The position numbers and the translations under genes are program-made. The notes beneath the pieces are model-generated. The model was not told the origin of the DNA and made no database searches. It worked only from the letters and a program-made list of their open reading frames with translations. Positions 1 through 60,880 of a stretch of 64,000 nucleotides of DNA are shown piece after piece (position 1 is the first letter of the stretch; every line of letters starts with the position of its first letter). The stretch comes from a virus. Where the stretch lies: positions 1-64,000 of IMG/VR virus record IMGVR_UViG_3300009428_000006; one strand, given 5' to 3'.

Positions 1-1394
1 AAAGCACCTACACCATCTCCACCTATCGAATCAAAACTATCTTCCGTAAGCTTCGGACTCCCCTTCTCTGTATATTCAGTAGGTGTCCAATCCGTATATC
101 TAGTCAAATATTCGATAACCTGATTGTTAGATCCAAGGTTATAATGGTTCCATTGTATTCTGGTATATGGTCCTGCAACATCAGTCTCATCCATCTTGAC
201 TAGAGGTGGTTCTGTTAATCCTGCATCATCTTCATAACAGTTAGGTCGTCTAGGCTTCGCCTCCTTAGCAGGACGGGCTTTTCTAGCTCGGACAGCCTTT
301 TGTATCACTTTACCATTATCATCCAATACAGCAGGGCTAGAGAAGCGCTCAGGCTCTTCTGGAACATAATCTGTGGCATCTTTGCCTAACCAGTAGTTCT
401 TAACATTCTCACTAGGATCACCATCTTTCTTGAATGGATTCCAAACAGGTGTAGTTTTATTAGCTGCACCCTCTTCCCAGCACCAGCCAAGAGGTATCTT
501 GGATAGGTTAGTATTCTTCAACATACCTTCACAATAAGTTTCAAAGTTTATTGGAGAACCGCATCCATCAAATGATAATCTGAATGGCATATCTGGTAAA
601 AGCTTATCTTCAATATCGGCTAGGTGTTCATCCCACTTCTTAACAAGACTACGTGCATACTTCTCATCAATAGGAAACCCGTGGATTTCTGACCATGAGA
701 TCCAGTATGCTGCATCCATTTCAGTTTGAAGTGGCCCTGTCCAATCGATATTGCACTCTAATCGATCACGTTCTCTCTCTTCTTGCAGGTAATCGTATAC
801 CTCACATTGGATCTCAACATCTCGCCAACAGCGTCTAAACATATCAATTGAAAAGTTTAACCAATCTTCATGTTCAACCTTAAAGCCGTTTCCTAATCTA
901 ATTGCGAAACTTTCCAAACTGTGAGCCCCAGACTTAGAACCTTCTACTAAGTCTCTATCACAGAATTGTGTTGAGCTTTGTACGAATGTATCCCATCTTT
1001 TCTCTCTTGGAACTACACAATCTAAAAGCATCTCCATAAGAGGGAAATCATATTTCATACCAAAGTGCATGACTTGGATTCCAACATGTTCACAGAAACT
1101 TGGTAAAGCACTTAGTGGGAGAAGCTTAGTATCACTTCGTCCGTGTTGTCTATTGTGACGTAGTAGTGCTCTCTTGTGTAACTTCAGCATTTCATCATCA
1201 ATGAAGTCATAACATGCACCACCTGCTTCTGGAATCTTGTAACATGCCATCCACACCCTGTCCACTTTCTTATGGACAATTAGTTGACCGCCTTTCCACT
1301 CTTTCTTATCTTCCAGAAGACCATTAGCCTCAATATCACCACATACTAAGATATCTTTGATGTTATCTGGAAACTTATATTGTACCTCTGCCAT
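1..1394 (-). CDS. T7-like family A DNA polymerase, N-terminal part (3'-5' exonuclease and thumb region); runs off the window edge
   Basis: Not in the ORF track. ATG at 1394 after GAGGAGG; reads MAEVQYKF...CGDIEANGLL (ExoI)...HFGMKYDFP (ExoII)...AHSLESFAIRLG...RCWRDV (ExoIII). Confidence 0.9.
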   Translation of the reverse strand, partial: MAEVQYKFPDNIKDILVCGDIEANGLLEDKKEWKGGQLIVHKKVDRVWMACYKIPEAGGACYDFIDDEMLKLHKRALLRHNRQHGRSDTKLLPLSALPSFCEHVGIQVMHFGMKYDFPLMEMLLDCVVPREKRWDTFVQSSTQFCDRDLVEGSKSGAHSLESFAIRLGNGFKVEHEDWLNFSIDMFRRCWRDVEIQCEVYDYLQEERERDRLECNIDWTGPLQTEMDAAYWISWSEIHGFPIDEKYARSLVKKWDEHLADIEDKLLPDMPFRLSFDGCGSPINFETYCEGMLKNTNLSKIPLGWCWEEGAANKTTPVWNPFKKDGDPSENVKNYWLGKDATDYVPEEPERFSSPAVLDDNGKVIQKAVRARKARPAKEAKPRRPNCYEDDAGLTEPPLVKMDETDVAGPYTRIQWNHYNLGSNNQVIEYLTRYTDWTPTEYTEKGSPKLTEDSFDSIGGDGVGA

Positions 1395-2456: not shown

Positions 2457-3766
2457 TTATCTAAATTTACTTATCCACGTACACTTATATTCTGCACGAG
2501 TAATAGCTGTGTACATCCAACGTCTCTTCTCGGAAATACGTCCTTTCATATTCTCCTCTATGACAACAATCTCTCCAAATGAACTCCCTGTCCTTTATGG
2601 CAAGTTATGGAATATCCAAATTCAAAGTAATTCTTAGTCAATTTACCTGTCATAGGTGGATGTTCTTTTCCAAGGAAGTATTCAGGATGTACCTGCACCT
2701 TATAGAACTCTTTTCCAACCTCATCAACAAGATCCATAATAAGTGTATTGTTCTCATATACAACATGTTTAACAAAGACTACAAGGCCATTTACTAGTCC
2801 CATCTCTCTGTTGTTACGTATGCATATGAGCCGTTCACCTACTTCTGGAAATGATCCACTGAATCCTCTATAAGTTCGTATCATGTCGTTATAGAGGTGT
2901 CTGGTCTTATTGTAATAACAAATAACAGTATCAGCATTAGCTATAAGATCTTTATCATTAAGAGCATCGCTACCTATCTTAATCATATCTTTCTTAACAC
3001 CATAGACACCTTTGTCTACATTCTTACCAAGGCGTACATCTGTAGCTACTGATATAATACCGCTCTCTAGAGCTTGTCTGTGTACATGTGTAAGCATAAA
3101 GTCAGGCTCTGACATTACGTTAGGACGCTTATCTTTCTTGTCAGTTACAATAGCGCTGAGCTGTCCAATATCACCTAAATATACGATAGGGATACAAAGT
3201 TCTTCCAAGTCTTGTCTCAAATCATTAGCCAACATAGATGCTTCATCTACAACTATAAGATCTGCACCCACTTCATATCTGTCCTTTTTGATAGGGACTA
3301 ATCGATTACCCTCTGGTAGCCAATTATAAAGTAAGTAGTGCAGTGTGTCGGCAGCAACACCCTTCTTACGAAGGACATCTGCTGCTTTACCTGTATACGC
3401 TGCTGACTTGATATGTGGTTTGCTTCCATCTGGATTTTCAAGGTCAGATAATACTAAGCTCATCAGTGTTGACTTACCTGTACCACTATACCCCGATAGT
3501 ACAACAGGCTTAGCCGTTCCACCTATGTTCTGCTGAACAGTCCACCACTCTTTAATACCATTATAGGCTTCAAGTTGATCATCATCCAGATCAGTTACAG
3601 TTAAACGTCTATGAGTCTTGCTGACAGGGGCTGTAACAGCTTCTATCTGATTAGTAGTATCATTGCATTGCTTAAGTAGTTTACGCCTTTCTCTGTCTCT
3701 CCTACGTCTCTCTGTCCTGCGTTGCTGGGTACGTGATGGAGGAGTTGGATTATTTAATTCATTCAA
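2457..3766 (-). CDS. Dda/RecD-like SF1B DNA helicase with an apparent frameshift near 2586-2588
   Basis: GYSGTGKS Walker A, DEASM, GDIGQL, HRQA, TCHKGQG; motif VI (WMYTAITRA) continues in another frame to TAA at 2457-2459. Confidence 0.88.
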
Positions 3767-3778
3767 AGTTCCTCCTTA

Positions 3779-5680
3779 TTAAACCGCTTTATTGTTAAAA
3801 GAGTTTCCTACCTTTGGAATAAAGTCTTCTTTATCCCGTTCCTTGATAGCAGCTTCAACATCTTTCTTATGTAAGCTAGGGTTGTAACTGAACCTGCCAG
3901 TCTTGGTGTTATATTCTAGACAACCTTTGGTTAGTCCTAATGTACCTGTCTCTCGTATCTTCAGCCACCTGATGAAACGGGTATTGCCATAGTCTTCATC
4001 TTCGTTCCATCCTTCGATAGCTCCAACCGAAAATCCTAACTGAATTATAGACTGAGATCCACGTAATAGATTAGGTGTTATCTCTGCGCCTTTTGATACA
4101 TCCTTTTTTGAATCTCCACGATTAATATGTACGACAGATAGGATATGCACAGGCGTATGTTCTACAAATCTGTATATCTTCTCAAGCAAAGTGTCTATAT
4201 CTTTTCGTTCATCATCTGATCCTGTTACAACAAGAGAGATGTGGTCAAGTATAATAAGCTTGCAACCTTTGGCAACCAAATAACGTATCTTGTTCATAAG
4301 GACATCTGGATCAATTGAACCTGAGTGATCCAAGAACATCATATTATCAATGATCTCAGCTTTTGTCTTTAGCTTATCTTCCAGAGGGATTATCCCAAAA
4401 TCCTTACGGTATTCATTAAGGGCAACACTATTATCATATGCAATATATCGCTGTTGACTCTTAACAACCTTCTCTTCTAGGAAAATATTTCCAACCATCC
4501 AACCATGTTCTGTTGACATGTGATGAGCTATAGCTGTTATAAGGCTTGACTTGCCAGATCCTGCTGAACTCGTCAAGATCGTATGCTCAAAAAGTCGCAT
4601 TCCTTGCATCGGATCTTGCAGATTTGGAAAAGGTAAACTATATCCCACCACAACATCTTTCTCTATATCAGCAAGCTCTAAGTCTTTGCCATCAATAATA
4701 TCAGATGGAGAATATTTCTTAGCTCCGAAGTACATTTCACTATAAATATCTATAGCATCTTCACCACCGATCTTAAGAATATCTGACATATCTTTCTTAC
4801 GGTCAGGGTACTCCATGATGTAAAGCTTATCTACACCAATTATCTGAACAGCAGCTTCTAAGCAAGCTTTGCCTTCTGTGTCAATCTTATAGTTATCACC
4901 TGCCCAGAATACTTTCTGGTATCGAGAGATTTCCTCAATATGATGCAGCAATGCTTTGTGAGCACCTTTTGCACCAGATGGTAAAGAAACTACATCTACT
5001 TCAGATCTTTTGATTCGTCTGTTTGTAGATCTGAAATTCATAGCCTTGTGCAATTGATACAAGGATGCACAGTCTTCTTCACCTTCCACGATTAACAATA
5101 CTTGATACTTGCCACTAAGCAAGTTCCAAGCAAACATGTCTGTACCATTTAAAGTACCAACAGCAGCTCCCCAATCTTTAGGCAATTTACGCATTTTATA
5201 TCCATACAACTCATCTTCTAAATAATATGGATAATATCTTGCCAACGCTCTGCCTGATGAAGTGTCGAATTCTGTTCTGATACCAAATCGTCTATCTGTC
5301 TCAGCAGTGATTCCTCGGCGCTTATCTCCTGAGAAGCCTAAATGAGGCATGTCATCCAGCGTCAGACCTTTGTTATAATTATTATAACCTGAACTGCCAC
5401 CATATGATTTGCGAGCTCTACGGCTTGCCTGAGGCTTCTTAGCGGCCTCTACTTCCTCTTTGGTAAAGTGTTTAGGACATCGGTTGCAATACCCCTTACC
5501 GCTTTCAAAGATCATCATGTGATTACCTGTGCTGTCTCCTCCTTTCTCACGGCAAGCAGGGCAAGCTGTGTTACCAACTATCTCCTCACGCTTTCTACTA
5601 GCTCTACGTGAAGTACGTTTCTTAGAGGCTTGAGATGGAGAAATCGCCTCTTCAAATTCATGTGCATTATTTAAAATCAA
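3779..5680 (-). CDS. T7 gp4-like primase-helicase
   Basis: CPAC...CNRC zinc ribbon, TOPRIM EGEEDC, SAGSGKS Walker A, FLEE, ILDHIS, LRGS. Confidence 0.92.
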   Translation of the reverse strand: MILNNAHEFEEAISPSQASKKRTSRRASRKREEIVGNTACPACREKGGDSTGNHMMIFESGKGYCNRCPKHFTKEEVEAAKKPQASRRARKSYGGSSGYNNYNKGLTLDDMPHLGFSGDKRRGITAETDRRFGIRTEFDTSSGRALARYYPYYLEDELYGYKMRKLPKDWGAAVGTLNGTDMFAWNLLSGKYQVLLIVEGEEDCASLYQLHKAMNFRSTNRRIKRSEVDVVSLPSGAKGAHKALLHHIEEISRYQKVFWAGDNYKIDTEGKACLEAAVQIIGVDKLYIMEYPDRKKDMSDILKIGGEDAIDIYSEMYFGAKKYSPSDIIDGKDLELADIEKDVVVGYSLPFPNLQDPMQGMRLFEHTILTSSAGSGKSSLITAIAHHMSTEHGWMVGNIFLEEKVVKSQQRYIAYDNSVALNEYRKDFGIIPLEDKLKTKAEIIDNMMFLDHSGSIDPDVLMNKIRYLVAKGCKLIILDHISLVVTGSDDERKDIDTLLEKIYRFVEHTPVHILSVVHINRGDSKKDVSKGAEITPNLLRGSQSIIQLGFSVGAIEGWNEDEDYGNTRFIRWLKIRETGTLGLTKGCLEYNTKTGRFSYNPSLHKKDVEAAIKERDKEDFIPKVGNSFNNKAV

Positions 5681-6049: not shown

Positions 6050-6072
6050 ATCACATAGGTGCGGTTTAAGGA
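6050..6072 (-). promoter_or_regulatory. candidate phage RNAP promoter (TCCTTAAACCGCACCTATGTGAT) facing the replication genes
   Basis: 22/23 identical to 12987-13009 in the opposite orientation; both head major operons. Confidence 0.65.
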
Positions 6073-6083
6073 TTGTTATTTAA

Positions 6084-6096
6084 TATCAATAACTTA
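6084..6096. promoter_or_regulatory. IHF consensus site TATCAATAACTTA
   Basis: Exact match to WATCAANNNNTTR. Confidence 0.5.
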
Positions 6097-6203: not shown

Positions 6204-6231
6204 TTGACAGCAATCTGAAAACGTATATACT
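6204..6231 (+). promoter_or_regulatory. sigma70-type promoter for the RNAP gene
   Basis: TTGACA-16 nt-TATACT. Confidence 0.65.
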
Positions 6232-6265: not shown

Positions 6266-8908
6266 ATGAGAGAAAAGCAGTTAGAACTAGAAAAGATGTA
6301 CTTCAATGAAACTACTATCGAAGGTTTTCTAGAGAACTTGGATAATAACCGAGATGCTACAATTCTTGTTGACATGTGTAATCTTGTTGAGGCAGCTATC
6401 AAAAACAAGCATGACACTGTTCAACGTAAGAGAGCATCATTCTTTAAACTTACTAAGGAGTTGGAACATAAAGAAGTTGCATTCATAGGTATTAAAGCTC
6501 TTGTGTCTAGTTTATCAATGGAAGCTTCATTACCTGTGACACGTATTGCAACTAGTATCGGTAACAGTCTTCTTTCTAAAGCAGGGAGATCAGAAGATAC
6601 TTTCTCTAAGGATAAAAAGATTGTAGTTGATTCTGTGTCAGCAGGTATTATGTTATTAGATTTAACATTAGAAGGTCTAAAGCCTCTTAAGTTGTTCCGT
6701 ACAGAACTAGAGCGTATTAGTAAGTCCGTGACAGAGTGGAAAGTCTCTGCAACTGATAATTGGAATACTCTCGTAAATGACAATGAAGAACTATTTGCAA
6801 CTGTTTCAGCTAAGAAGATGCCAATGGTTTGTGAACCTGATGATTGGAAAGACATGATATGTGGTGGATATTTATCAGAAGTTGGTAAAGCAACTAATCC
6901 TTTTGTTAAGGGCAAGCATAAGCATGAGCTTCCAGAGGATGATCGTTTGTTTGCATCTATTAACCATATGCAAAAGACTCCTCACAGGATCAATCAAAGG
7001 ATCTTTGGACTCTACAAGACGCTACAAGCTTCTCGTCCTGATGAGATGGGTAAGTTATTTCTTAATAACCTACCCAAGTCTTTCAATGAACCTTGTCCAA
7101 TTGATAAGGAACTTGATGAACATATCTGGGAGAAGGTAGAAGGTGAAAAGGTTGATAAGAAGACAGGCAAGAAGAAGAAGGCAATGGTTCTTGCTTTCCA
7201 AGATGAAGCCTCTAATGAAAAGCGTAAAGAGTTCTTCAAATGGGTTGACAGGAAAGAAGCATATGTAAAGAAGGTTGCAGGTAAGAAGTCTTTAGATCGT
7301 GCCTTAGAAGCTACCATACAGATTACTGAGATGGTTAAGGAAGAAGATGAGCTATATTGGCCTTTAAGCACAGATGGTCGTAGTCGTGTATATCCTTCTG
7401 CTATGTCAGGTATTAATCTTCAAGGTGCTGATTTTCAGAAGGCTGTTTTGGAGTTCTCTGTAGGTTTACCACTTGATCATGATGGTGATGGCAAGGGTGG
7501 TGAGTATGGTATTATCAAGACCCTTTGTAATCACTGGGGTAACGACTCAGGCAATGGTATCAAGACAGATAAGCTGACTGAACAAGATTCAATAAAATGG
7601 ATCAATGAGAACAATGATTGGATTATTGAATGCTCTGTTAATCCTCTTGAAAAGTGTAAGTGGATGTCTGCTGATAAGCCTTTACAATTCTTAGCTGCTG
7701 CTTTTGAGTGGGCTGCATGGAAAGAATACTTTGCAAAAAATGGTGATTACAAGTTTGTATCTCACTTGCCTGATCCTAATGATGCGAGTTGTACAGGTGC
7801 TCAGATCCTTTCTGCAATGACTAGAGATATTGTCGGAGCTAGACATACAAACTTATGTGCATTACCAGATGCTCAAGATCTCTATATGGCTGTGGCAGGA
7901 AAGGTTCTAGACAACCTTCTAAGCGTTTTTAAAGAAGACCCTATGGCTCAGGATTGGTTAGGTCGAGTTAACGTCTTAGAGCGCCTACAGAACGTCTTAA
8001 ATGGGCAAGAAGATGATATACTTTCATCAAGAACCCAAGAGATGATTATTAGCCGTTCAAAAGAGTTTGACACACTGGAAGAATTATACTTAAATACTTA
8101 TCTAGACTTTGACCGTTTAGAGCAGGTAAGATTAAGCTTTATTATTCGCAACCTTGTTAAGAAGCCAGTTATGGTTAAATTCTATTCAGGTACTCGATAT
8201 GGTAATATCCAACACTGTTCTGAGTTCATTGTTGAGAAGCAGTGGGAGGATAACTTCAGATGTGAAGGGACAGGTCAAGCTGCTAGTTACATGGGTAATA
8301 TGATCTTTGATTCAATCAATCAGGTAATTACTGGAGCTGGTCAGGTGATGGAATGGTTTGTACATGTTGCTGATGTATTGGGTAATTGTGGTAAACCTGT
8401 GAAGTGGACTACACCTATGGGCTTTAAGGCTACAATGGCTAAGTACAAGATGGAGAACATTTTAGTACATGCTGACTTCATGGGTGATGCAAGACTCTTC
8501 ACTGTCAAGCTACCTAAAATGGCTGAGGATAAAAACGGTGTGTTGCAAAAGGTTCTTGATGTAGGTAAAATGAAGTCATCTGTAGCTCCAGATATAGTGC
8601 ATAGTCTTGACAGTTGTCTGGTCCAAGCTGTTGCTTTGAGATGCGAATCTGAGAAGATAGATCACTTATTAATGGTGCATGACTCTCTTGCTGCTCACTG
8701 TTGTTACACTCGAAGATTTAACCGTATTATTCGAGAGGAGTTTATCAAGATATTTGAGGAAGATATCCTTCAGAAGCTTTATGAAGAGTTCCAATCACAG
8801 CTTGATGAAGATCAAAGAAACCTGTTGCTATCACCTAAGCAGTTTGGTATAGTGTATGGAGAGTATGATTTAAATGAAATGTTAAGTAGTGTACACTGCT
8901 TTAAATAA
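6266..8908 (+). CDS. T7-like single-subunit DNA-directed RNA polymerase
   Basis: PMVCEPDDW, DGRSRVY, motif A DASCTGAQ, motif B RNLVKKPVMVKFY, WTTPMG, PDIVHSLD, motif C VHDS; 880 aa. Confidence 0.95.
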   Translation: MREKQLELEKMYFNETTIEGFLENLDNNRDATILVDMCNLVEAAIKNKHDTVQRKRASFFKLTKELEHKEVAFIGIKALVSSLSMEASLPVTRIATSIGNSLLSKAGRSEDTFSKDKKIVVDSVSAGIMLLDLTLEGLKPLKLFRTELERISKSVTEWKVSATDNWNTLVNDNEELFATVSAKKMPMVCEPDDWKDMICGGYLSEVGKATNPFVKGKHKHELPEDDRLFASINHMQKTPHRINQRIFGLYKTLQASRPDEMGKLFLNNLPKSFNEPCPIDKELDEHIWEKVEGEKVDKKTGKKKKAMVLAFQDEASNEKRKEFFKWVDRKEAYVKKVAGKKSLDRALEATIQITEMVKEEDELYWPLSTDGRSRVYPSAMSGINLQGADFQKAVLEFSVGLPLDHDGDGKGGEYGIIKTLCNHWGNDSGNGIKTDKLTEQDSIKWINENNDWIIECSVNPLEKCKWMSADKPLQFLAAAFEWAAWKEYFAKNGDYKFVSHLPDPNDASCTGAQILSAMTRDIVGARHTNLCALPDAQDLYMAVAGKVLDNLLSVFKEDPMAQDWLGRVNVLERLQNVLNGQEDDILSSRTQEMIISRSKEFDTLEELYLNTYLDFDRLEQVRLSFIIRNLVKKPVMVKFYSGTRYGNIQHCSEFIVEKQWEDNFRCEGTGQAASYMGNMIFDSINQVITGAGQVMEWFVHVADVLGNCGKPVKWTTPMGFKATMAKYKMENILVHADFMGDARLFTVKLPKMAEDKNGVLQKVLDVGKMKSSVAPDIVHSLDSCLVQAVALRCESEKIDHLLMVHDSLAAHCCYTRRFNRIIREEFIKIFEEDILQKLYEEFQSQLDEDQRNLLLSPKQFGIVYGEYDLNEMLSSVHCFK

Positions 8909-8971
8909 GAACAAACTTGAGGGTGATAATCAAATCCCCTCTTTTAATAAATAATAGAAGGAATAACTTAT

Positions 8972-9418
8972 ATGACAAATGCAATCAATAATAACAATAA
9001 CAACGTAACTAACACAACTGGCTGGGAAGTAGAGGATATTTTCTCAGCATCATTCATGTTCCCTACAGCTCACTTTAAATCTCAGGATGAGTTAGAGAAA
9101 ATGGATGAATATGATCGTAACTACTTATTTCAAACCTTAATCGAGACAGGCTCTGACTACTTCACTGATATGGACAAGGAGCGCTTACGTAAGGCTGTTC
9201 ATTCAGATAATAAGCTAAGACTGTACTACAACATATTAAACGCTTTACAGTCTAGCACAGACGCTTTAAATGCCACTCAAGAAAGCTGTCTCAATTCAGA
9301 AGAAGTTGACACAGAAGAAATGATGGATCATAATGGTGTTACAATCAAGGATTCTTATCAAGTTGATGAATACTTAGAAGAGGAAGAATTGGAACAATAT
9401 ATGGCTAAATTTGGGTAG
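8972..9418 (+). CDS. hypothetical acidic protein
   Basis: ORF with RBS; Asn run at the N-terminus, D/E-rich. Confidence 0.7.
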   Translation: MTNAINNNNNNVTNTTGWEVEDIFSASFMFPTAHFKSQDELEKMDEYDRNYLFQTLIETGSDYFTDMDKERLRKAVHSDNKLRLYYNILNALQSSTDALNATQESCLNSEEVDTEEMMDHNGVTIKDSYQVDEYLEEEELEQYMAKFG

Positions 9419-9590
9419 GAAACGATCACAAAATCGAGCTAATTATAGGGTAGTTTTAGAAAGTCAATTTTTAGAGTTGCAAGTTATTGTATTCTAAGGA
9501 AAAAACGGACTTCTCTTTCCTTAACCCATCAATACGGCAGTATTCTTATTAGATAATTTATTAAATCAACTCTTAAAAAAGGAGGTAACA

Positions 9591-11072
9591 ATGAGTGACA
9601 AATTAAGGGAGTATATTAAGAAACCTTTTATCCTAAATACTCACAAAGATGTAAGCATAACTGATATATTTGATATAGTAGAAATAGACTCTGATCTTCA
9701 GTTTGTATTCAAAGATCAAGATGAAAAGTCTTCCTTCTGGTATTCTAACTATGAAGTTAGGAAGCTATATGATTATAACAGTTTAAGTATGGAAGTTATA
9801 TTCAGCAGAGAAGGTCTTCCTTTACGGTGTCATCATGCTTATGCTGAAATCTGTGATAGTTTTAAGGATTATTTGTTACTCACTAGAAAGCTTGTATCAG
9901 ATAGGAAGTTGAAGAATACATTGCTTATGTTCTTTAAAAATATAAGCAGACTTAAGTATCACAACAAATATTCACTTAGGTATAGATCTTGTACTAAATA
10001 CTGGAAGTCAGTAAGTCGCGGACTTAGCAGGTCATACTTTATGGAGTTTATAGAGTTTCTTAAATCCAAAGAAGATGCTGTAAGCTTTACAGGGTTTAGT
10101 TTGTCAGGTGAGGCATCTGCAACTAGCTTACTCATTCTTAATCCCAACTTCATAGATTATTGTAATTGCGATAACCCTGTAAAGATTGAAGAAGAGTTTA
10201 GATCAGTGGAGGGAGATTCAGTAGTTATACATAAGGATCATAATTATGATATTATACTTAGCAAAGAGGAGAAGATGATGGCTGGTAAGCTAGAGAAGAT
10301 GATGGACGTGTACAATGAGAAGCTTAAAGAAGTCACTGTAAAGGCTAATGGCTTTGATGTACCTGAGACGTTCTTTCGAAGAGTATTCTCAGGTGATTTC
10401 TCAAGTGGAGGTAGATTCTATGAAACAAAATCCTCTATTCAGAAGTCTCCTGAGTCGATCAGAAAGACGGTTACGATAGATGGAGAGCCTACAGTAGAGA
10501 AAGACTACAAGTACTTACATGTAGCTATGGCATATGAAGAGAAAGGTATTCAGTTTGAGAAAGATCCTTATGATTTCGATTTAGATATTGAAATAGATGA
10601 GAAAGCCTTGTCTAGATGGTGCAAGACAAACGGGGTTAATAGGGGCGCATATGATCCTGTACGTAACTTTAAGAAGACCGTCTTGCTTGTATTGATGAAT
10701 GCTACAGGTGTGGAAAGTACAATCTCAGGTATTCGCTACAATGTAGCTAAAGATTTCTCTAAGAAGTTAGGCTCTAGTCGTAAGTTTGTAGGGATTGTAA
10801 ATGCACCTGTTAAAGAGACTGTTAAGAAAGCTATGGAGTACCACAAGGATATTTCCGAATACTTTTGTTCTGGTGTAGGTATCAGGTTTCAGAATCTAGA
10901 TTCTAAGATGGTGGAGTATTGTATTTCTCAATTCTTGAAAATGGATGAGGTATTGTTTCCTGTACACGATTCATTGATCATTAAATCATCTTGTTCTGAT
11001 AAAGCAGAGCAGGTAATGACAGATGCTTATGAGTTTGTAATGGGTAGTAAGTTAAATTGTAAGATTAAGTGA
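9591..11072 (+). CDS. minimal PolA/T7-RNAP superfamily polymerase (TV-Pol-like), no exonuclease domain
   Basis: GGRFY; motif A-like VEKDYKYLH; motif B-like RNFKKTVLLVLMN; Q-helix FQNLDS; motif C PVHDS. Confidence 0.7.
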   Translation: MSDKLREYIKKPFILNTHKDVSITDIFDIVEIDSDLQFVFKDQDEKSSFWYSNYEVRKLYDYNSLSMEVIFSREGLPLRCHHAYAEICDSFKDYLLLTRKLVSDRKLKNTLLMFFKNISRLKYHNKYSLRYRSCTKYWKSVSRGLSRSYFMEFIEFLKSKEDAVSFTGFSLSGEASATSLLILNPNFIDYCNCDNPVKIEEEFRSVEGDSVVIHKDHNYDIILSKEEKMMAGKLEKMMDVYNEKLKEVTVKANGFDVPETFFRRVFSGDFSSGGRFYETKSSIQKSPESIRKTVTIDGEPTVEKDYKYLHVAMAYEEKGIQFEKDPYDFDLDIEIDEKALSRWCKTNGVNRGAYDPVRNFKKTVLLVLMNATGVESTISGIRYNVAKDFSKKLGSSRKFVGIVNAPVKETVKKAMEYHKDISEYFCSGVGIRFQNLDSKMVEYCISQFLKMDEVLFPVHDSLIIKSSCSDKAEQVMTDAYEFVMGSKLNCKIK

Positions 11073-11079
11073 GGAATAT

Positions 11080-11727
11080 ATGAGAATAGAAGATGAAATA
11101 ATAGAGCACTGTCTTTATTACCTAGAAGAGAAGGATACTAAAAAGGCGAAGTCAGAGGATTGTTTAGATGTGTTAGCGGACTACCTTGAAGATTCTGATA
11201 TAGATTTGAAATACATCTATCATGAATTACTTGTAATCCACCTCTTAGAGAATTATAAAACTAATAGATTAAGTCTTATGGAATCTATTTTTAAAAAGGT
11301 AAGTCCTAAACTTTATCACGTTTACAAACTTATGAAAAATGGTAAGGAGGTCTATATAGGCCAATCTATAAATGTGTCAGCAAGGCTTAAAAAGCACCTT
11401 GACAAAGATTTCGATGAAATACTTATCTGCCAGTGCAGGAATAAGGATGAGATGGATAATTTGGAGAACTACTTGATTCTAAAAATACTGCCTAAGTTAA
11501 ATAACAAGGTGTTTTTAGACAAGGCAAGGTGTTTTGAAGAAAATCCTTTTTCTTTTGAATTTAAAAAATTAGAAGATCTTGATTATGATTTCATACCTTG
11601 TATGTGGAACGTTTCTAAATCTGTAGATAGTGAGAAATACTTATACAGGTATCCGTATTTTGTAAAGAACAAATATAACATAACACCTGCTTGGAAACTT
11701 AGATGTAAAGATAAGGAAGAAAACTAG
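11080..11727 (+). CDS. GIY-YIG domain protein
   Basis: HVYKL...VYIGQS..RLKKH...E...N. Confidence 0.7.
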   Translation: MRIEDEIIEHCLYYLEEKDTKKAKSEDCLDVLADYLEDSDIDLKYIYHELLVIHLLENYKTNRLSLMESIFKKVSPKLYHVYKLMKNGKEVYIGQSINVSARLKKHLDKDFDEILICQCRNKDEMDNLENYLILKILPKLNNKVFLDKARCFEENPFSFEFKKLEDLDYDFIPCMWNVSKSVDSEKYLYRYPYFVKNKYNITPAWKLRCKDKEEN

Positions 11728-11756
11728 TTGACACCAAAAGAAACCTTTAGTAGAAT
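11728..11756 (+). promoter_or_regulatory. sigma70-type promoter
   Basis: TTGACA-17 nt-TAGAAT. Confidence 0.75.
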
Positions 11757-11813
11757 TATATCTATTAAAGGTTTTCTCGTTTCTGAGATACCAAATTGTA
11801 AGGAGAGAGTGTT

Positions 11814-12392
11814 ATGTTTAAAAATATGATATCTGCGGCAGCAAATGTTTTTGAGGTTTTTGATAAAGAAGGTAATTATTTACAGGATGTGACTTTAGTT
11901 GATTGTTGTCACATGGGACGCAATATGCAAGAAGTTTATCATTTCCTTCGTGAAGGGTTCGGATGTACCCTCAAGGCTAAGAAAGAGCTTGGTGATAATG
12001 GTCAGGGTTTTATTGACGAGTCAGGTCATTTCTATAATCGTTCTAATGCTTTTAAGATTGCTACTTCTAGTGGACAACCTTTCAACCCAGAGTATATTCT
12101 TCCTACTAAAAGACTTGATAGTAGTTGTATTAGACATTTCCCAGAAGAAGCTAATCTCTACGATTACGGTAAAGAAAACACTTTTAAATATAGTCTCAAT
12201 CAGAAAGTAAGAGTTCAAGTGTTTAATGCTTTTAAAACAGGCGTTATCGTTAAGAGAAGTTCTTACGAAACCAATCTAGGTATTAATTTTAAATACACTG
12301 TAGAGTATGGTGAAGGTCACGGAAATTGCATAGATGTTTGGGAAAAAGATTTGCACCTTATACAAAAATTACATTTTGTAGGTAAAATATGA
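11814..12392 (+). CDS. hypothetical protein
   Basis: ORF with RBS; QGFIDESGHFYNR motif common in phage hypotheticals. Confidence 0.7.
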   Translation: MFKNMISAAANVFEVFDKEGNYLQDVTLVDCCHMGRNMQEVYHFLREGFGCTLKAKKELGDNGQGFIDESGHFYNRSNAFKIATSSGQPFNPEYILPTKRLDSSCIRHFPEEANLYDYGKENTFKYSLNQKVRVQVFNAFKTGVIVKRSSYETNLGINFKYTVEYGEGHGNCIDVWEKDLHLIQKLHFVGKI

Positions 12393-12865
12393 GCTTATCA
12401 TTCAGAGAGGGACTGCACTTTCACAGTTGGGACATTGTGCAAGAAAGAGAATACCTAGATTACAAACATGAGGAAATGGGCTTAACATTAAAAGACAGAA
12501 TACGGGTTTGTAAAAAGTGTGGTAAGACAGAAAAGCTAGACACTCACTGTTTAGGCTTAAATCCGCCAGAGTATGTAGAAAGCTGGCATGAAATAAAGAA
12601 AGACTCTTGGAGGAAAGAGGATATGAGTAAACACAGTAATAAGCTCAATATAACCGAGTCAAAACTGTTTAAAGATGTAAGTAGTGTGATTGGTAAGGTG
12701 GCTGCATTAGAAGAGCTTACAAGGGCTTACAGGGGGTATACTCCTGCATCAAACTCTCCCCCGTTTAATTGGCAGGAAGGACTTATAGACGCATTTTGGT
12801 GGTTCGGAACACCACAAGGTGGCGATTATTGGTATGATATCTGGGAGAAGGGTGCTGACACTTAA
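12389..12865 (+). CDS. hypothetical protein (CxxC motif; possible internal start at MSKH)
   Basis: ATGA overlap with the upstream ORF. Confidence 0.6.
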   Translation: MSLSFREGLHFHSWDIVQEREYLDYKHEEMGLTLKDRIRVCKKCGKTEKLDTHCLGLNPPEYVESWHEIKKDSWRKEDMSKHSNKLNITESKLFKDVSSVIGKVAALEELTRAYRGYTPASNSPPFNWQEGLIDAFWWFGTPQGGDYWYDIWEKGADT

Positions 12866-12986
12866 GTAAAAATAATAGGGTCATCTAATCTAAAACCTTG
12901 CAGCTTACATACCAATTTTCAACTGGGATCTTGATTAAAATAGTCAAGATCTTTAAAATAGCTAAACTTTTGTTTTATATACATAT

Positions 12987-13009
12987 TCCTTAAACCGCAC
13001 CTATATGAT
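12987..13009 (+). promoter_or_regulatory. candidate phage RNAP promoter (TCCTTAAACCGCACCTATATGAT) facing the ncRNA, packaging and structural genes
   Basis: 22/23 identical to the reverse complement of 6050-6072. Confidence 0.65.
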
Positions 13010-13265
13010 AGGATGATTACTATTTAAACTATCAAACCTAAGTATTTAATCAATTAATTGAATCGAATATGAGAGACTATTCGCATTTCACGTAGACTCT
13101 TTAGGTTATATATTAATACTTCCCAATGGACGATCTGATGCTATTTCATGGATAGCTCATAACAAGAACACACAGATGTTTCATTGGTGAGTAGGTGATA
13201 CTTCAAGTTAATATGGAGATTCACTTTTAGGTGCTTGTTGCTTTATGCCGAGTTACCGAATCTTT

Positions 13266-41379: not shown

Positions 41380-41700
41380 ATGAAAAATTTATCGTTAGCT
41401 GTTATTTTTTCCTCAGCAATACTGACTGGATGCCAATCCACCTTTATAGAAAAAGAGTTTAACAAAGAGGATCAGTGACAAAAGGTTAAAGTTATTAGGA
41501 CGGAGGCGAGTCAATTTTCAAGAAAAGAAGGCTTTAAAAGGAAAGGTAAAGCAGGGGAAGCTAAATACTATTTAAATGACCCAGAAAATGAGTGTAGGCT
41601 AAACATAATGTCTAAAGGTAAAATAAATCTGGATGGTAAATATGCACTAACATTGGGCCATGAACTTATGCACTGCCTTTATGGTGATTATCACAAGTAA
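41380..41700 (+). pseudogene. lipoprotein with HExxH motif, interrupted by an in-frame TGA at 41476-41478
   Basis: Not in the track. MKNLSLAVIFSSAILTGC lipobox...EDQ*QKVK...GHELMHCLYGDYHK*; AGGAG RBS. Confidence 0.7.
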
Positions 41701-58776: not shown

Positions 58777-58976
58777 TCTTCTCCTTTTCCGTTACCTTCT
58801 TTGACTAACTCATACAGTTTACATTCTAATTCTATGTGTGACATCAGTAATGCGTGCAGAAAGCCATTACCTGTCTCATTCTTCCAAAGTTCTCCATGTC
58901 TAAATATCTCTATATTTCCATTATCATAAAGTACTTCATATTTACCATTTTCTAGTGGCAGTGTAAACTTCATCAA
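58773..58976 (-). CDS. hypothetical protein
   Basis: ORF with RBS. Confidence 0.55.
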   Translation of the reverse strand: MMKFTLPLENGKYEVLYDNGNIEIFRHGELWKNETGNGFLHALLMSHIELECKLYELVKEGNGKGED

Positions 58977-59060
58977 TCTTCCTCCTCCTCATTAAAAGAT
59001 AATAGAAATATTAGTAGCCATATGACTAATGTAAAGTATACAGCACTCATTGTATTTCTC

Positions 59061-59291
59061 CTACTTATTAAATATAAATTTATCAGTTCTGCCCTTGTCT
59101 AATACATATTCAAGCAGTCCTTCTTCTAAGTTGTGACCATTAAAGCATACTCCTTTTACGAGTGCAAGTCTTTTCTCAAAATCAGGATCAACCTTCTTGG
59201 GCTTAGGCTTGCAATCATGATCAGCTAGGTGATACTTTCCATTAGTTTTCTCCCACTTTACAAAGTCTCCACATTCACGACAGTTTGGCAT
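59061..59291 (-). CDS. hypothetical zinc-binding protein
   Basis: CRECG...HDC. Confidence 0.55.
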   Translation of the reverse strand: MPNCRECGDFVKWEKTNGKYHLADHDCKPKPKKVDPDFEKRLALVKGVCFNGHNLEEGLLEYVLDKGRTDKFIFNK

Positions 59292-59436
59292 AAAACAATC
59301 TCCTAAGTTTTGTTACGCACTCTTCACAGACTACCTGTAGTGAGCACACAGCAACGATAATGAAAAAGATGACACATAGTACCAGTGCAGCTAGAAAGAA
59401 GCTTACAGTTGCACACAGGGCTTTTAAAGGGTGCAT
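59275..59436 (-). CDS. small membrane protein
   Basis: Long hydrophobic stretch; ATG at 59436 after GGAGG. Confidence 0.5.
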   Translation of the reverse strand: MHPLKALCATVSFFLAALVLCVIFFIIVAVCSLQVVCEECVTKLRRLFYAKLS

Positions 59437-59437
59437 A

Positions 59438-59665
59438 TCACACCGCCTCCCAATCATATATATTCTTAATCTTCTTAGCCACAAAGCTTCCCATTGAATC
59501 AGCACCTTTCAATTCATCAATTACATCTACTGGTACACTTGCATAGCAATACACTTTATCATTATATTTAAACTCAATCATCAATTCTTCCATTTCATGA
59601 TTATACATGATGGTTTTAATATTGCTAGAGTTTGCTGTGATGTGTTCAATATTTGGATTAGTCAT
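59438..59665 (-). CDS. KTSC domain protein
   Basis: SSNIKTIMY...LMIEF....YCYASVP......L..ADSMGSFV...IK. Confidence 0.85.
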   Translation of the reverse strand: MTNPNIEHITANSSNIKTIMYNHEMEELMIEFKYNDKVYCYASVPVDVIDELKGADSMGSFVAKKIKNIYDWEAV

Positions 59666-60104
59666 TTAGTGAGCCCTCTTTTGTACGAATAAGATAGAGT
59701 TCGTCTTCTCCATATACACTTCTGAATCTTCCATAGTCATACCATATGCCATCCAGCTCTACAAACAGTGTTTCACTATACATATGATCTTCTAAATTAG
59801 TCACCAGATAAGCACCTCTTGTGAATTCCTCATCAGTAGAGTTAACTATTTCTACCTTATCACCTTCTTTCATTTTAAGCTGCTTCCAGTTCTCTTTCGT
59901 GATACGCTCTCTTGCCTCCACAGCAGGACTGTAATCAACTTTCTTCAACTTAGGCTGTGATAGCTTAGGTATTGTGGTTAAACGTGACAGAGCTACTGTG
60001 TGAGCCTCTAAAATAGATTCTGCATGATGTAATTGCTTCTTCAGTTTTGCAACTACTTCTTTATCCTGCTCAATTGTTTCTAATAAGTTGTATACTTGTT
60101 TCAT
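59658..60104 (-). CDS. hypothetical protein
   Basis: ORF with RBS. Confidence 0.6.
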   Translation of the reverse strand: MKQVYNLLETIEQDKEVVAKLKKQLHHAESILEAHTVALSRLTTIPKLSQPKLKKVDYSPAVEARERITKENWKQLKMKEGDKVEIVNSTDEEFTRGAYLVTNLEDHMYSETLFVELDGIWYDYGRFRSVYGEDELYLIRTKEGSLND

Positions 60105-60107
60105 AGT

Positions 60108-60350
60108 TTATTCTCCTAATTTAGCAACCACTTGTTGAGCTTTTTCTGGTGTCAGTTTAAATGTAATCCCATTACTAATACATAGTCCTAGAAATTCATC
60201 TGCCTTCATCTGATCTAGTCTTGTTAGAATAGTTTTCTCACATCCTCCAACCATTGCCAGTAGTCCTGCTAGATTAGCTATTTCCCATTCAGCTTTTGAA
60301 GTCTCCTCTGAAGGATATCTCTTTTCAATTATTGACATAATACTTAACAT
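60108..60350 (-). CDS. hypothetical protein
   Basis: ORF with RBS. Confidence 0.55.
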   Translation of the reverse strand: MLSIMSIIEKRYPSEETSKAEWEIANLAGLLAMVGGCEKTILTRLDQMKADEFLGLCISNGITFKLTPEKAQQVVAKLGE

Positions 60351-60352
60351 AC

Positions 60353-60880
60353 TTATTCTCCTAATTTATAACACTGATTTAATCTCTTTTCAGATAGATA
60401 CTCGATCAATACATCTCGGCCTATCACGTAGCCTTCTTTAGTTGTCTTCAACTTAGTACGGTAATGATCGTTGTTCAACCCTCTCCAGTACAAGCACATA
60501 TCATACATCTGACCTGTCACCTTTGTCAATGTATCTTTGATAAAGATGTAAGTAGTGATATCTTTATTAACACGTTCATACTTAATTTTAAGGTGACGGC
60601 TTAAAGAGATAGGCTTAGTTGTTGCACCTAACAAGCTCTGATCAAACCCAGACTTATTTGTACACCACCTGTAACCTTGCATGTTATCTGGAACAATTGT
60701 ACAATCTTTTAAATCAAATGAACCTATATTAGTAAAGTAATAGCCTCTTTTAATATCCTTGGGAGTTAACACATGGTAAGAGTTTTGCAATACACGCGGC
60801 CTATTGGCTCGATTTTGATACTTGGAAAGAAGTACATCCTCTTTCAATTTTACTATTTGTCCTACTAGGAAATTGTTCAT
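60353..60880 (-). CDS. hypothetical protein
   Basis: ORF with AAGGAG RBS. Confidence 0.6.
   Translation of the reverse strand: MNNFLVGQIVKLKEDVLLSKYQNRANRPRVLQNSYHVLTPKDIKRGYYFTNIGSFDLKDCTIVPDNMQGYRWCTNKSGFDQSLLGATTKPISLSRHLKIKYERVNKDITTYIFIKDTLTKVTGQMYDMCLYWRGLNNDHYRTKLKTTKEGYVIGRDVLIEYLSEKRLNQCYKLGE

Follow-up and report, generated by a model that had tools for sequence, protein, structure and literature searches.

The 64-kb window analysed here (positions 1 to 64,000 of IMG/VR record IMGVR_UViG_3300009428_000006) is part of a 75-kb phage record that is ~78% complete, and it raises the question of what role a very small polymerase may have in a phage that already encodes a full-size, T7-like single-subunit RNA polymerase (RNAP). 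The protein in question, referred to as the mini-polymerase, is the product of an open reading frame (ORF) of 493 aa at 9591..11072 on the plus strand. Its C-terminal ~290 residues are shown to be a minimal, exonuclease-free polymerase of the PolA/T7-RNAP type that keeps the hairpin Arg, both metal-binding Asp residues and the RxxxK helix, and the identity of its fold and family is hardly in doubt. The N-terminal ~200 residues are, on weak fold matches, a probable DNA binder of the winged-helix type. Origin-specific priming is the best-supported function of the enzyme, at roughly even odds.

Fold, active site and kinship of the mini-polymerase

The gene is preceded by a gap of 172 bp (9419-9590), with a strong ribosome-binding site (RBS), AAGGAGG, located 7 nt before the ATG. 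Among PHROGs, the encoded protein is matched by PHROG 4756, a group of unknown function (1e-89). Pfam, NCBIfam and PDB sequence searches place neither the mini-polymerase nor its distant members in a named family, and a hidden Markov model (HMM) of the family, run over all PDB sequences, returned no match. The gene, its polymerase core and the codons of the core residues are located as follows:

9591..11072 (+): mini-polymerase gene, PHROG 4756 member and homologue of ICP1 ORF100 (ORF, RBS, PHROG, full-length AlphaFold2 model, BFVD matches)
10206..11069 (+): polymerase core with palm, fingers and reduced thumb (VIA, Foldseek, invariant residues, residue maps to single-subunit RNAPs and TV-Pols)
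10413-10415, 10503-10505, 10662-10676 and 10698-10700 (+): codons of R275, of D305, of R358 and K362, and of N370
10890-10904 and 10965-10970 (+): codons of the C-terminal part of the core, Q434 to S438 and H459-D460

An AlphaFold2 model of the full-length protein was built on 20 homologues (predicted local distance difference test score, pLDDT, 84.5; predicted template modelling score, pTM, 0.77). When compared with the PDB by Foldseek, the top 50 matches of this model are all family-A DNA polymerases, with E-values down to 3e-6. VIA, a structure aligner independent of Foldseek that was run over 48,161 chains, returns as its top 14 matches only PolA DNA polymerases and T7/mitochondrial RNAPs (Z 9-12.9 over ~230 residues, model residues 205-493), with unrelated folds starting below Z 7. 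Both the repair-type family-A enzymes Pol nu and Pol theta and replicative ones are found among the best VIA matches. No exonuclease domain was found in the mini-polymerase by Pfam or by the fold search.

The active-site residues are contained in five motifs: GGRFY holds R275, VEKDYKYLH holds D305 and H310, RNFKK...N holds R358, K362 and N370, FQNLDS holds Q434, D437 and S438, and VHDS (458-461) holds H459 and D460. In the model, R275 is positioned on a beta-hairpin (262-267/274-278) and D305 at the end of strand 299-306, while R358 and K362 are located on helix 356-370, with N370 at the helix end, and H459-D460 in a beta-turn (458-461). In the 20 close homologues, D305, H310, R358, N359, K362, N370, Q434, D437, S438, H459 and D460 are invariant. 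Among 125 diverse representatives of the family, reaching down to ~21% identity, invariance is seen for R275, R291, D305, Y327, K362, H459 and D460, and conservation of at least 90% for G274, H310, P326, R358, N370, D437 and S438. Furthermore, a D325-P-Y327 motif is invariant in the close clade, with the Pro and Tyr conserved in at least 90% family-wide, and D325 may correspond to the conserved fingers Asp described for TV-Pols (PMC2579912). In TV-Pols, the thumb is built on two antiparallel helices; the model shows a single long helix (225-246) ahead of the beta-hairpin, and a pair of helices forms a hairpin at 78-123. Since the catalytic residues are invariant, the mini-polymerase is probably an active enzyme. 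The initial annotation of this DNA, which had recognized palm motifs but no exonuclease domain in the 493-aa ORF and had staked its reading on a PolA-type palm and conserved Asp residues, is borne out on these points: the motifs are all present, Pfam and the fold search agree, the leading Foldseek and VIA matches all belong to PolA enzymes or single-subunit RNAPs (ssRNAPs), and D305 and D460 are invariant in the 125 representatives.

The family is large. An exhaustive HMMER search recovers 4,148 clusters (50% identity) at E<=1e-3 and 1,490 at E<=1e-10, with a common core that corresponds to residues ~232-493. By tblastn, homologues are found in 286 phage records, nearly all annotated as 'hypothetical', and few records or clusters carry the label 'DNA polymerase'. 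Homologues are found in phages of Vibrio (among them ICP1, eugene 12A10 and qdvp001), in the Rheinheimera Barba phages, and in phages of Aeromonas, Shewanella, Pseudoalteromonas, Klebsiella and Pseudomonas; the ICP1 homologue is ORF100 (gp100). The top 150 relatives range from 125 to 562 aa, without a helicase-length fusion among them. Two matching places each, i.e., paralogous copies, are present in phages qdvp001, VPMCC14, vB_CoeS_P1, S4-7, J2-1, P018-4 and 5P1b, which are large Vibrio and Pseudoalteromonas phages. In addition, ICP1 isolates fall into two classes with 33% versus 27% identity to the query (E 1e-29 versus 4e-12; for example, MW794152.1 58419-59021 versus NC_015157.1 54046-54771), which suggests that two divergent alleles of the gene circulate in the ICP1 lineage.

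The closest parallels are the TV-Pols, which are predicted primase-polymerases (PMC2579912). In Microcystis phage Ma-LMM01, for which a TV-Pol element has been described beside transposases (PMC2579912), the family HMM matches one place, gp030 (E 4.6e-4), a 506-aa hypothetical protein adjoining two transposase genes. Compared profile to profile, the mini-polymerase and gp030 families match with 76% probability and E 2.3e-5 over 101 collinear columns, spanning the hairpin Arg (R275 aligns to R235 of the gp030 family), motif A (D-x4-H in both) and motif B (K...N). Thus, the TV-Pol family shares with the mini-polymerase the minimal exonuclease-free PolA-type core, the hairpin with its invariant Arg, the two catalytic Asp residues, the RxxxK fingers helix and these motif A and B patterns, and it likewise occurs in phages and mobile DNA. 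However, the sequence link is moderate, and motifs B to C resemble the ssRNAPs equally well. The profile-profile comparison (hhalign) with T7-like RNAPs gives 70% probability and E 4.2e-5 over 141 columns from motif B to motif C, placing R358 and K362 opposite RNAP R628 and K632, and H459 and D460 opposite H805 and D806; the H-D-S of motif C, present as VHDS in the mini-polymerase, is shared with the T7-like ssRNAPs. In the same alignment, N370 stands opposite RNAP Y640 and Q434 opposite H779, both of which are invariant in the RNAP alignment. A comparison by hhalign with a single RNAP sequence aligned only motif C, at 6% probability, and is superseded by the profile-profile comparison. The kinship with TV-Pols that had been proposed from the sequence therefore holds through gp030, but not exclusively, as the ssRNAPs match about equally. 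Furthermore, the link to a D5-like helicase, resolvase, integrase or transposase that is a hallmark of TV-Pols is not seen across 29 loci, and the N-terminal domain of TV-Pols is all-helical, whereas that of the mini-polymerase is alpha/beta and winged-helix-like. The family forms a lineage of its own, which in sequence lies between TV-Pols and ssRNAPs.

The residues involved in sugar choice are of particular interest. In T7 RNAP, Y639 and H784 read the ribose 2'-OH, and we take these two residues to be the RNAP-invariant Tyr and His opposite N370 and Q434. PolA DNA polymerases carry a steric-gate Glu at the D+5 position, where the mini-polymerase family has a His (H310), and Q434 is presumably of the residue type found at the equivalent position in PolA DNA polymerases. 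The ribose-sensing Tyr and His of ssRNAPs are absent, and a His occupies the steric-gate position; we lean towards DNA or mixed primers as the probable product of the mini-polymerase.

The N-terminal domain and the upstream element

The N-terminal domain and the elements upstream of the gene were compared with those of the sister phage L005. The following features are involved:

9591..10205 (+): N-terminal domain (residues 1 to ~205), alpha/beta, probably winged-helix-like, fast-evolving (separate model; weak fold matches; L005 comparison)
9419..9515 (+): distal part of the upstream gap, which holds AAGTTATTG (9481-9489); 95-97% identity to L005
9518..9537 (+): degenerate promoter-like box TCCTTAACCCATCAATACGG, a variant of the canonical 18-mer; the L005 version is CCTTTACCCATATATAC
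9538..9590 (+): AT-rich proximal leader (~24% GC) and RBS; sequence unrelated to L005
6055..6095 (-): canonical promoter-like element, leftward, consisting of AAGTTATTG, 14 nt and TCCTTAAACCGCACCTAT; between the replisome operon and the RNAP gene
12960..13010 (+): canonical promoter-like element, rightward, before an ORF-free region and the late genes

Folded alone, the N-terminal domain gives a model with pLDDT 84.7 and pTM 0.84, in which residues ~104-195 have the topology helix-strand-helix-helix-strand-strand. Its matches are nearly all winged-helix DNA binders, such as CodY-C, MarR/SarA, PadR, CAP, ORC, RTP and eS10; no Pfam family matches the domain. Matches to BFVD models of relatives extend across both domains in full (TM-score 0.6-0.76), and the N-terminal domain is therefore part of the family architecture.

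Identity to L005 at the protein level is 98% for the RNAP, 95% for the primase-helicase over the 415 residues that L005 holds, and 86% for the mini-polymerase. Within the mini-polymerase, it amounts to 72.5% in the N-terminal domain versus 94.5% in the core. The sliding-window identity to L005 along the locus is as follows:

9373-9512, distal gap: 95-97%
9512-9591, proximal gap: 40-55%
N-terminal half of the ORF: 60-85%
Polymerase core: 90-97%

The window and L005 share no related sequence over the 80 nt that lead up to the ATG, while both flanks are 90-97% identical. Synonymous codon differences are similar in number in the first 200 residues (52) and in the core (57), whereas nonsynonymous ones number 55 and 16, which is ~five-fold more per codon in the N-terminal domain. 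From the codon and sliding-window profiles, the N-terminal domain and the DNA just upstream thus diverge together. This joint divergence is the pattern that would be expected of a recognition domain and its site.

The upstream DNA itself resembles elements elsewhere in the phage. The 18-mer TCCTTAAACCGCACCTAT is found exactly twice, at 6055-6072 (-) and 12987-13004 (+), with 0.03 copies expected. The shorter pattern TCCTTAAMCC has three exact matches in the 75-kb record, all of them intergenic and the third at 9518 (0.2 expected); none of 100 shuffles reaches three, the pattern having been picked after seeing the data. In addition, AAGTTATTG occurs only at 6087 (-) and 9481 (+), in each case 5' of a box in the same orientation. 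Each canonical copy of TCCTTAAACCGCACCTAT carries an A/T-rich upstream half, with the leftward copy facing the replisome operon and the rightward one the late region, and the phage's own RNAP plausibly uses these canonical elements as promoters. Together with the degenerate copy at 9.5 kb, they are all the copies in the 75-kb record. At 9.5 kb, the upstream half is retained, the spacer is ~15 bases longer and the box is degenerate, CCTT.A--CCCAT..ATAC, differing from the canonical copies at more than 3 positions and also from the box of L005. The variant promoter architecture that the initial annotation had described in the gap is thus recovered, with the strings in place and shorter cores recurring at the canonical sites.

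L005 has boxes at the three syntenic places, and both of its canonical copies, at 1300-1370 (-) and 6968-7038 (+), are identical to those of the window. As to whether homologues keep the upstream motif, the position is kept in L005, but the sequence of the box differs there; the window-type box and allele persist with few changes in contigs from three other studies. Among public runs, no RNA run is listed as carrying this DNA. The gap shows neither RNA structure (fold z = -0.42) nor an Rfam match, and in de novo k-mer motif searches, nothing but coding bias and RBS-like motifs emerged.

Proposed origin-specific priming and its alternatives

If origin-specific priming is the function, the N-terminal domain would direct the polymerase to a particular DNA site that coincides with the early (theta) replication origin or lies close to it. 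There, the polymerase would make or extend the first leading-strand primer, and the adjacent T7-type replisome would then take over from it. T7 RNAP has this task at the primary origin of T7, and prim-pols and TV-Pols are predicted to have it. The element at 9481-9537 with the AT-rich stretch is a candidate for this site, or may simply be the promoter of the gene. For the statement as a whole, i.e., a two-domain enzyme including this priming role, we put the chances a shade below even.

Neighbourhoods were counted over 28-29 loci, using crude ORF calls made for this analysis. The upstream neighbour is located on the opposite strand in 16 of 28 loci, which makes the gene the first after a divergent junction, and in 25 of these 28 the upstream gap measures 110 bp or more. 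In 11 loci, a PhoH-like gene is encoded upstream, on the opposite strand, and TerL is found ~4-5.6 kb downstream in eight loci and 5.2 kb downstream in the window. Across the 29 loci, the recurrent neighbours are PhoH-like, TerL and gp4-like primase-helicase genes, the last of which is a few kb away at most, both in the window and in several of the loci. No downstream partner gene is conserved family-wide at the sequence level. The placement 'beside the RNAP' that the initial annotation had emphasized applies to the window and L005, to which this adjacency is confined, but is not seen elsewhere in the family.

The strongest independent hint of an origin role comes from ICP1, a phage whose replication initiation is described in the literature as unsolved and which is reported to have no obvious RNAP. 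Its early theta replication is bidirectional, with a coverage peak 'near the 60 kb position' (PMC7145576), and ORF100 of ICP1_2006_E is located at 58,951-60,618, with the nearest divergent junction at 57.5-57.7 kb. The origin link drawn in the initial annotation accordingly receives circumstantial support from the ICP1 peak, the divergent junctions and the co-divergence with L005, but the ICP1 gene has no gap of its own.

Several observations weigh against an origin-specific role. The coincidence in ICP1 is one at coverage-plot resolution (several kb), with coordinates that are perhaps reference-dependent. In the same phage, ORF99 overlaps the start of ORF100, and an adjacent cis element is therefore not universal. 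Within the window, the gap contains no iterons or direct repeats, and GC skew, which has its minimum at the 6.1-kb junction, follows the direction of transcription and cannot place the origin. The N-terminal domain has no significant structural match (VIA Z<=5; Foldseek E>=0.036), and the co-divergence rests on two alleles and could be explained by relaxed constraint together with a small recombination patch. No SSB-like or helicase partner is conserved beside the gene. Finally, the phage seems to have a Toprim-type primase, judging from a weak Toprim signal in the N-terminal part of the gp4-like protein (E 0.016, under the Pfam cut-off), as well as its own RNAP; a third priming activity is not obviously needed, and any role of the mini-polymerase would therefore be a specialised one.

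Two known systems show how such an enzyme might work. The primary origin of T7 consists of the promoters phi1.1A/B and an AT-rich region just downstream of gene 1, and it is here that T7 RNAP starts. T7 RNAP belongs to the same superfamily as the mini-polymerase and starts de novo at a specific site, and the arrangement of a promoter-like box followed by an AT-rich stretch after the RNAP gene, with hand-over to a T7-type replisome, is alike. However, the mini-polymerase is about half the size of T7 RNAP, has no PF00940 match, lacks the Tyr/His ribose sensors and has an N-terminal domain that is unrelated by sequence. The second system is formed by the CcPol-MP/PolA-SSB primases of SCCmec and Bacillota elements, in which an A-family polymerase domain has been turned into a primase by an added DNA-binding module (PMC7581432, PMC10061031). 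These combine an A-family polymerase domain with a DNA-binding module, as the mini-polymerase may do, and CcPol-MP is the sole biochemical precedent for de novo synthesis by an A-family fold outside RNAPs. In those elements, the module is a small OB-fold protein of its own, whose gene lies immediately downstream and precedes those for a helicase and serine recombinases, whereas the mini-polymerase carries its candidate DNA binder fused at the N-terminus and belongs to a lytic phage. As its relatives have no conserved downstream partner at the sequence level, the CcPol-MP arrangement does not apply to them.

An alternative that we consider unlikely is that of a very small specialised RNAP, whose N-terminal domain would read a promoter, e.g., the variant box, and which would transcribe a subset of genes or a non-coding RNA. 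Although its motifs resemble those of the phage's RNAP (RN(L/F)xKK, (H/Q)xLDS, VHDSL, GR(V/F)Y and D(L/P)Y) and the profile-profile match to ssRNAPs points in the same direction, an Asn stands at the T7 Y639 position and a Gln at the T7 H784 position, and PF00940 (RNA_pol) does not match the mini-polymerase in Pfam even at E<=1, compared with 3e-64 for the adjacent true RNAP. The gene heads a rightward block ~5 kb before the terminase in many relatives, and a small RNAP would suit ICP1 with its lack of an obvious RNAP, but the phage studied here already has a full-size RNAP with two canonical elements, and with a single occurrence of the box in the 75-kb record, a regulon of matching promoters is lacking. 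RNAP II of phage N4 (PDB 6dt7) is a T7-like polymerase that is likewise reduced and does not recognise promoters autonomously, but it is a weaker VIA match (Z 7.2), consists of two subunits and is a true RNAP.

It is quite unlikely that the mini-polymerase is an accessory, primer-dependent DNA polymerase without site specificity, serving gap filling, repair, lesion bypass or recombination-dependent replication, with the upstream element as its promoter. Such a role would leave unexplained why the N-terminal domain is conserved and evolves faster, why the gene recurs at divergent junctions and why it coincides with the ICP1 origin region, and the HDS of motif C, the His at the steric gate and the reduced thumb are unlike those of processive DNA polymerases. 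It finds support in Pol nu and Pol theta as repair-type enzymes among the best fold matches, in Q434 as the presumed PolA residue type, in the few depositors who label homologues 'DNA polymerase' and in the upstream element being a degenerate copy of a promoter-like element. Least probable, with only a slim chance, is a non-replicative nucleotidyltransferase or counter-defence/takeover factor (tailing, signal nucleotide, decoy DNA or RNA synthesis), since the fast N-terminal domain, the two divergent ICP1 alleles typical of arms-race genes, the phages with two copies and the location in an early, hypothetical-rich region are set against a retained hairpin Arg, RxxxK helix and Q/D residues before motif C, which fit template-directed synthesis.

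Origin-specific priming may also extend beyond this phage. PHROG 4756/ICP1 gp100 could represent a previously unrecognised class of origin-specific initiator polymerases that lay the first leading-strand primer at theta origins, a generalization that is put forward tentatively and that we regard as rather less likely than not to be true. Members of such a class would be single polypeptides of ~430-550 aa, with a rapidly diversifying DNA-recognition head and the smallest self-sufficient PolA/RNAP-type core, and would serve ICP1-like, FelixO1-like and related phages in place of the role that T7 RNAP has in T7. How replication starts is an unsolved question in ICP1 and in many phages that carry a T7-type replisome and no RNA polymerase; if true, the initiator class would explain it in phages of this kind. 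ICP1 ORF100, at the mapped early-replication peak, is a candidate initiator in a well-developed genetic system. Furthermore, neither Pfam nor NCBIfam has a model for the 4,148-cluster family, and thousands of phage proteins would gain an annotation if its function were assigned. The position between TV-Pols and T7-type RNAPs and the unusual sugar-choice residues bear on the divergence of DNA and RNA polymerases within the fold, and a small site-specific polymerase of the PolA/RNAP fold could become a useful enzyme.

Neighbouring genes of the window

The genes around the mini-polymerase include the following:

6266..8908 (+): T7-like single-subunit RNAP (Pfam RNA_pol, 3e-64)
3779..5680 (-): gp4-like primase/helicase (phrog_239, 1e-125; DnaB_C)
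2558..3766 (-): Dda-like helicase
3..1394 (-): DNA polymerase fragment, N-terminal 464 aa, cut by the contig end (phrog_17, 2e-31)
11080..11727 (+): GIY-YIG homing endonuclease, directly downstream of the mini-polymerase; absent in L005

The gp4-like primase/helicase, the Dda-like helicase and the DNA polymerase fragment are encoded on the opposite strand and diverge from the RNAP gene. The T7-like DNA polymerase that had been claimed for this DNA is present through its phrog_17 match, but only as the truncated N-terminal fragment. PF00476 (DNA_pol_A) has no match in the 75-kb record, and since the gene is cut at the contig end, the polymerase family of the main replicase is not readable here.

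An ORF of 148 aa, Asn-rich and acidic, lies between the RNAP and the mini-polymerase (8972-9418); it is 90% conserved in L005 and has no family in Pfam or PHROGs. Downstream, the region 11080-12392, which comprises the GIY-YIG gene and the next gene, a PHROG-839 member, is missing from L005, where the mini-polymerase is followed directly by a homologue of a 158-aa ORF (12389-12865 in the window). This region looks like a mobile insertion adjoining the polymerase gene.

Near-consensus sigma-70-type promoters (11/12 matches) are found at 6204-6231, 9306-9334 and 11728-11775. The first precedes the RNAP gene, the second falls in the last part of the acidic ORF, with ~260 nt separating it from the mini-polymerase gene, and the third precedes the PHROG-839 gene and overlaps a 15-bp hairpin. 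In addition, a partly palindromic TTATGGTGATTATC-like motif is present at 8918-8932 and 41679-41693, with weaker copies, in several intergenic gaps; the copy at 8918-8932 sits just past the stop codon of the RNAP gene.

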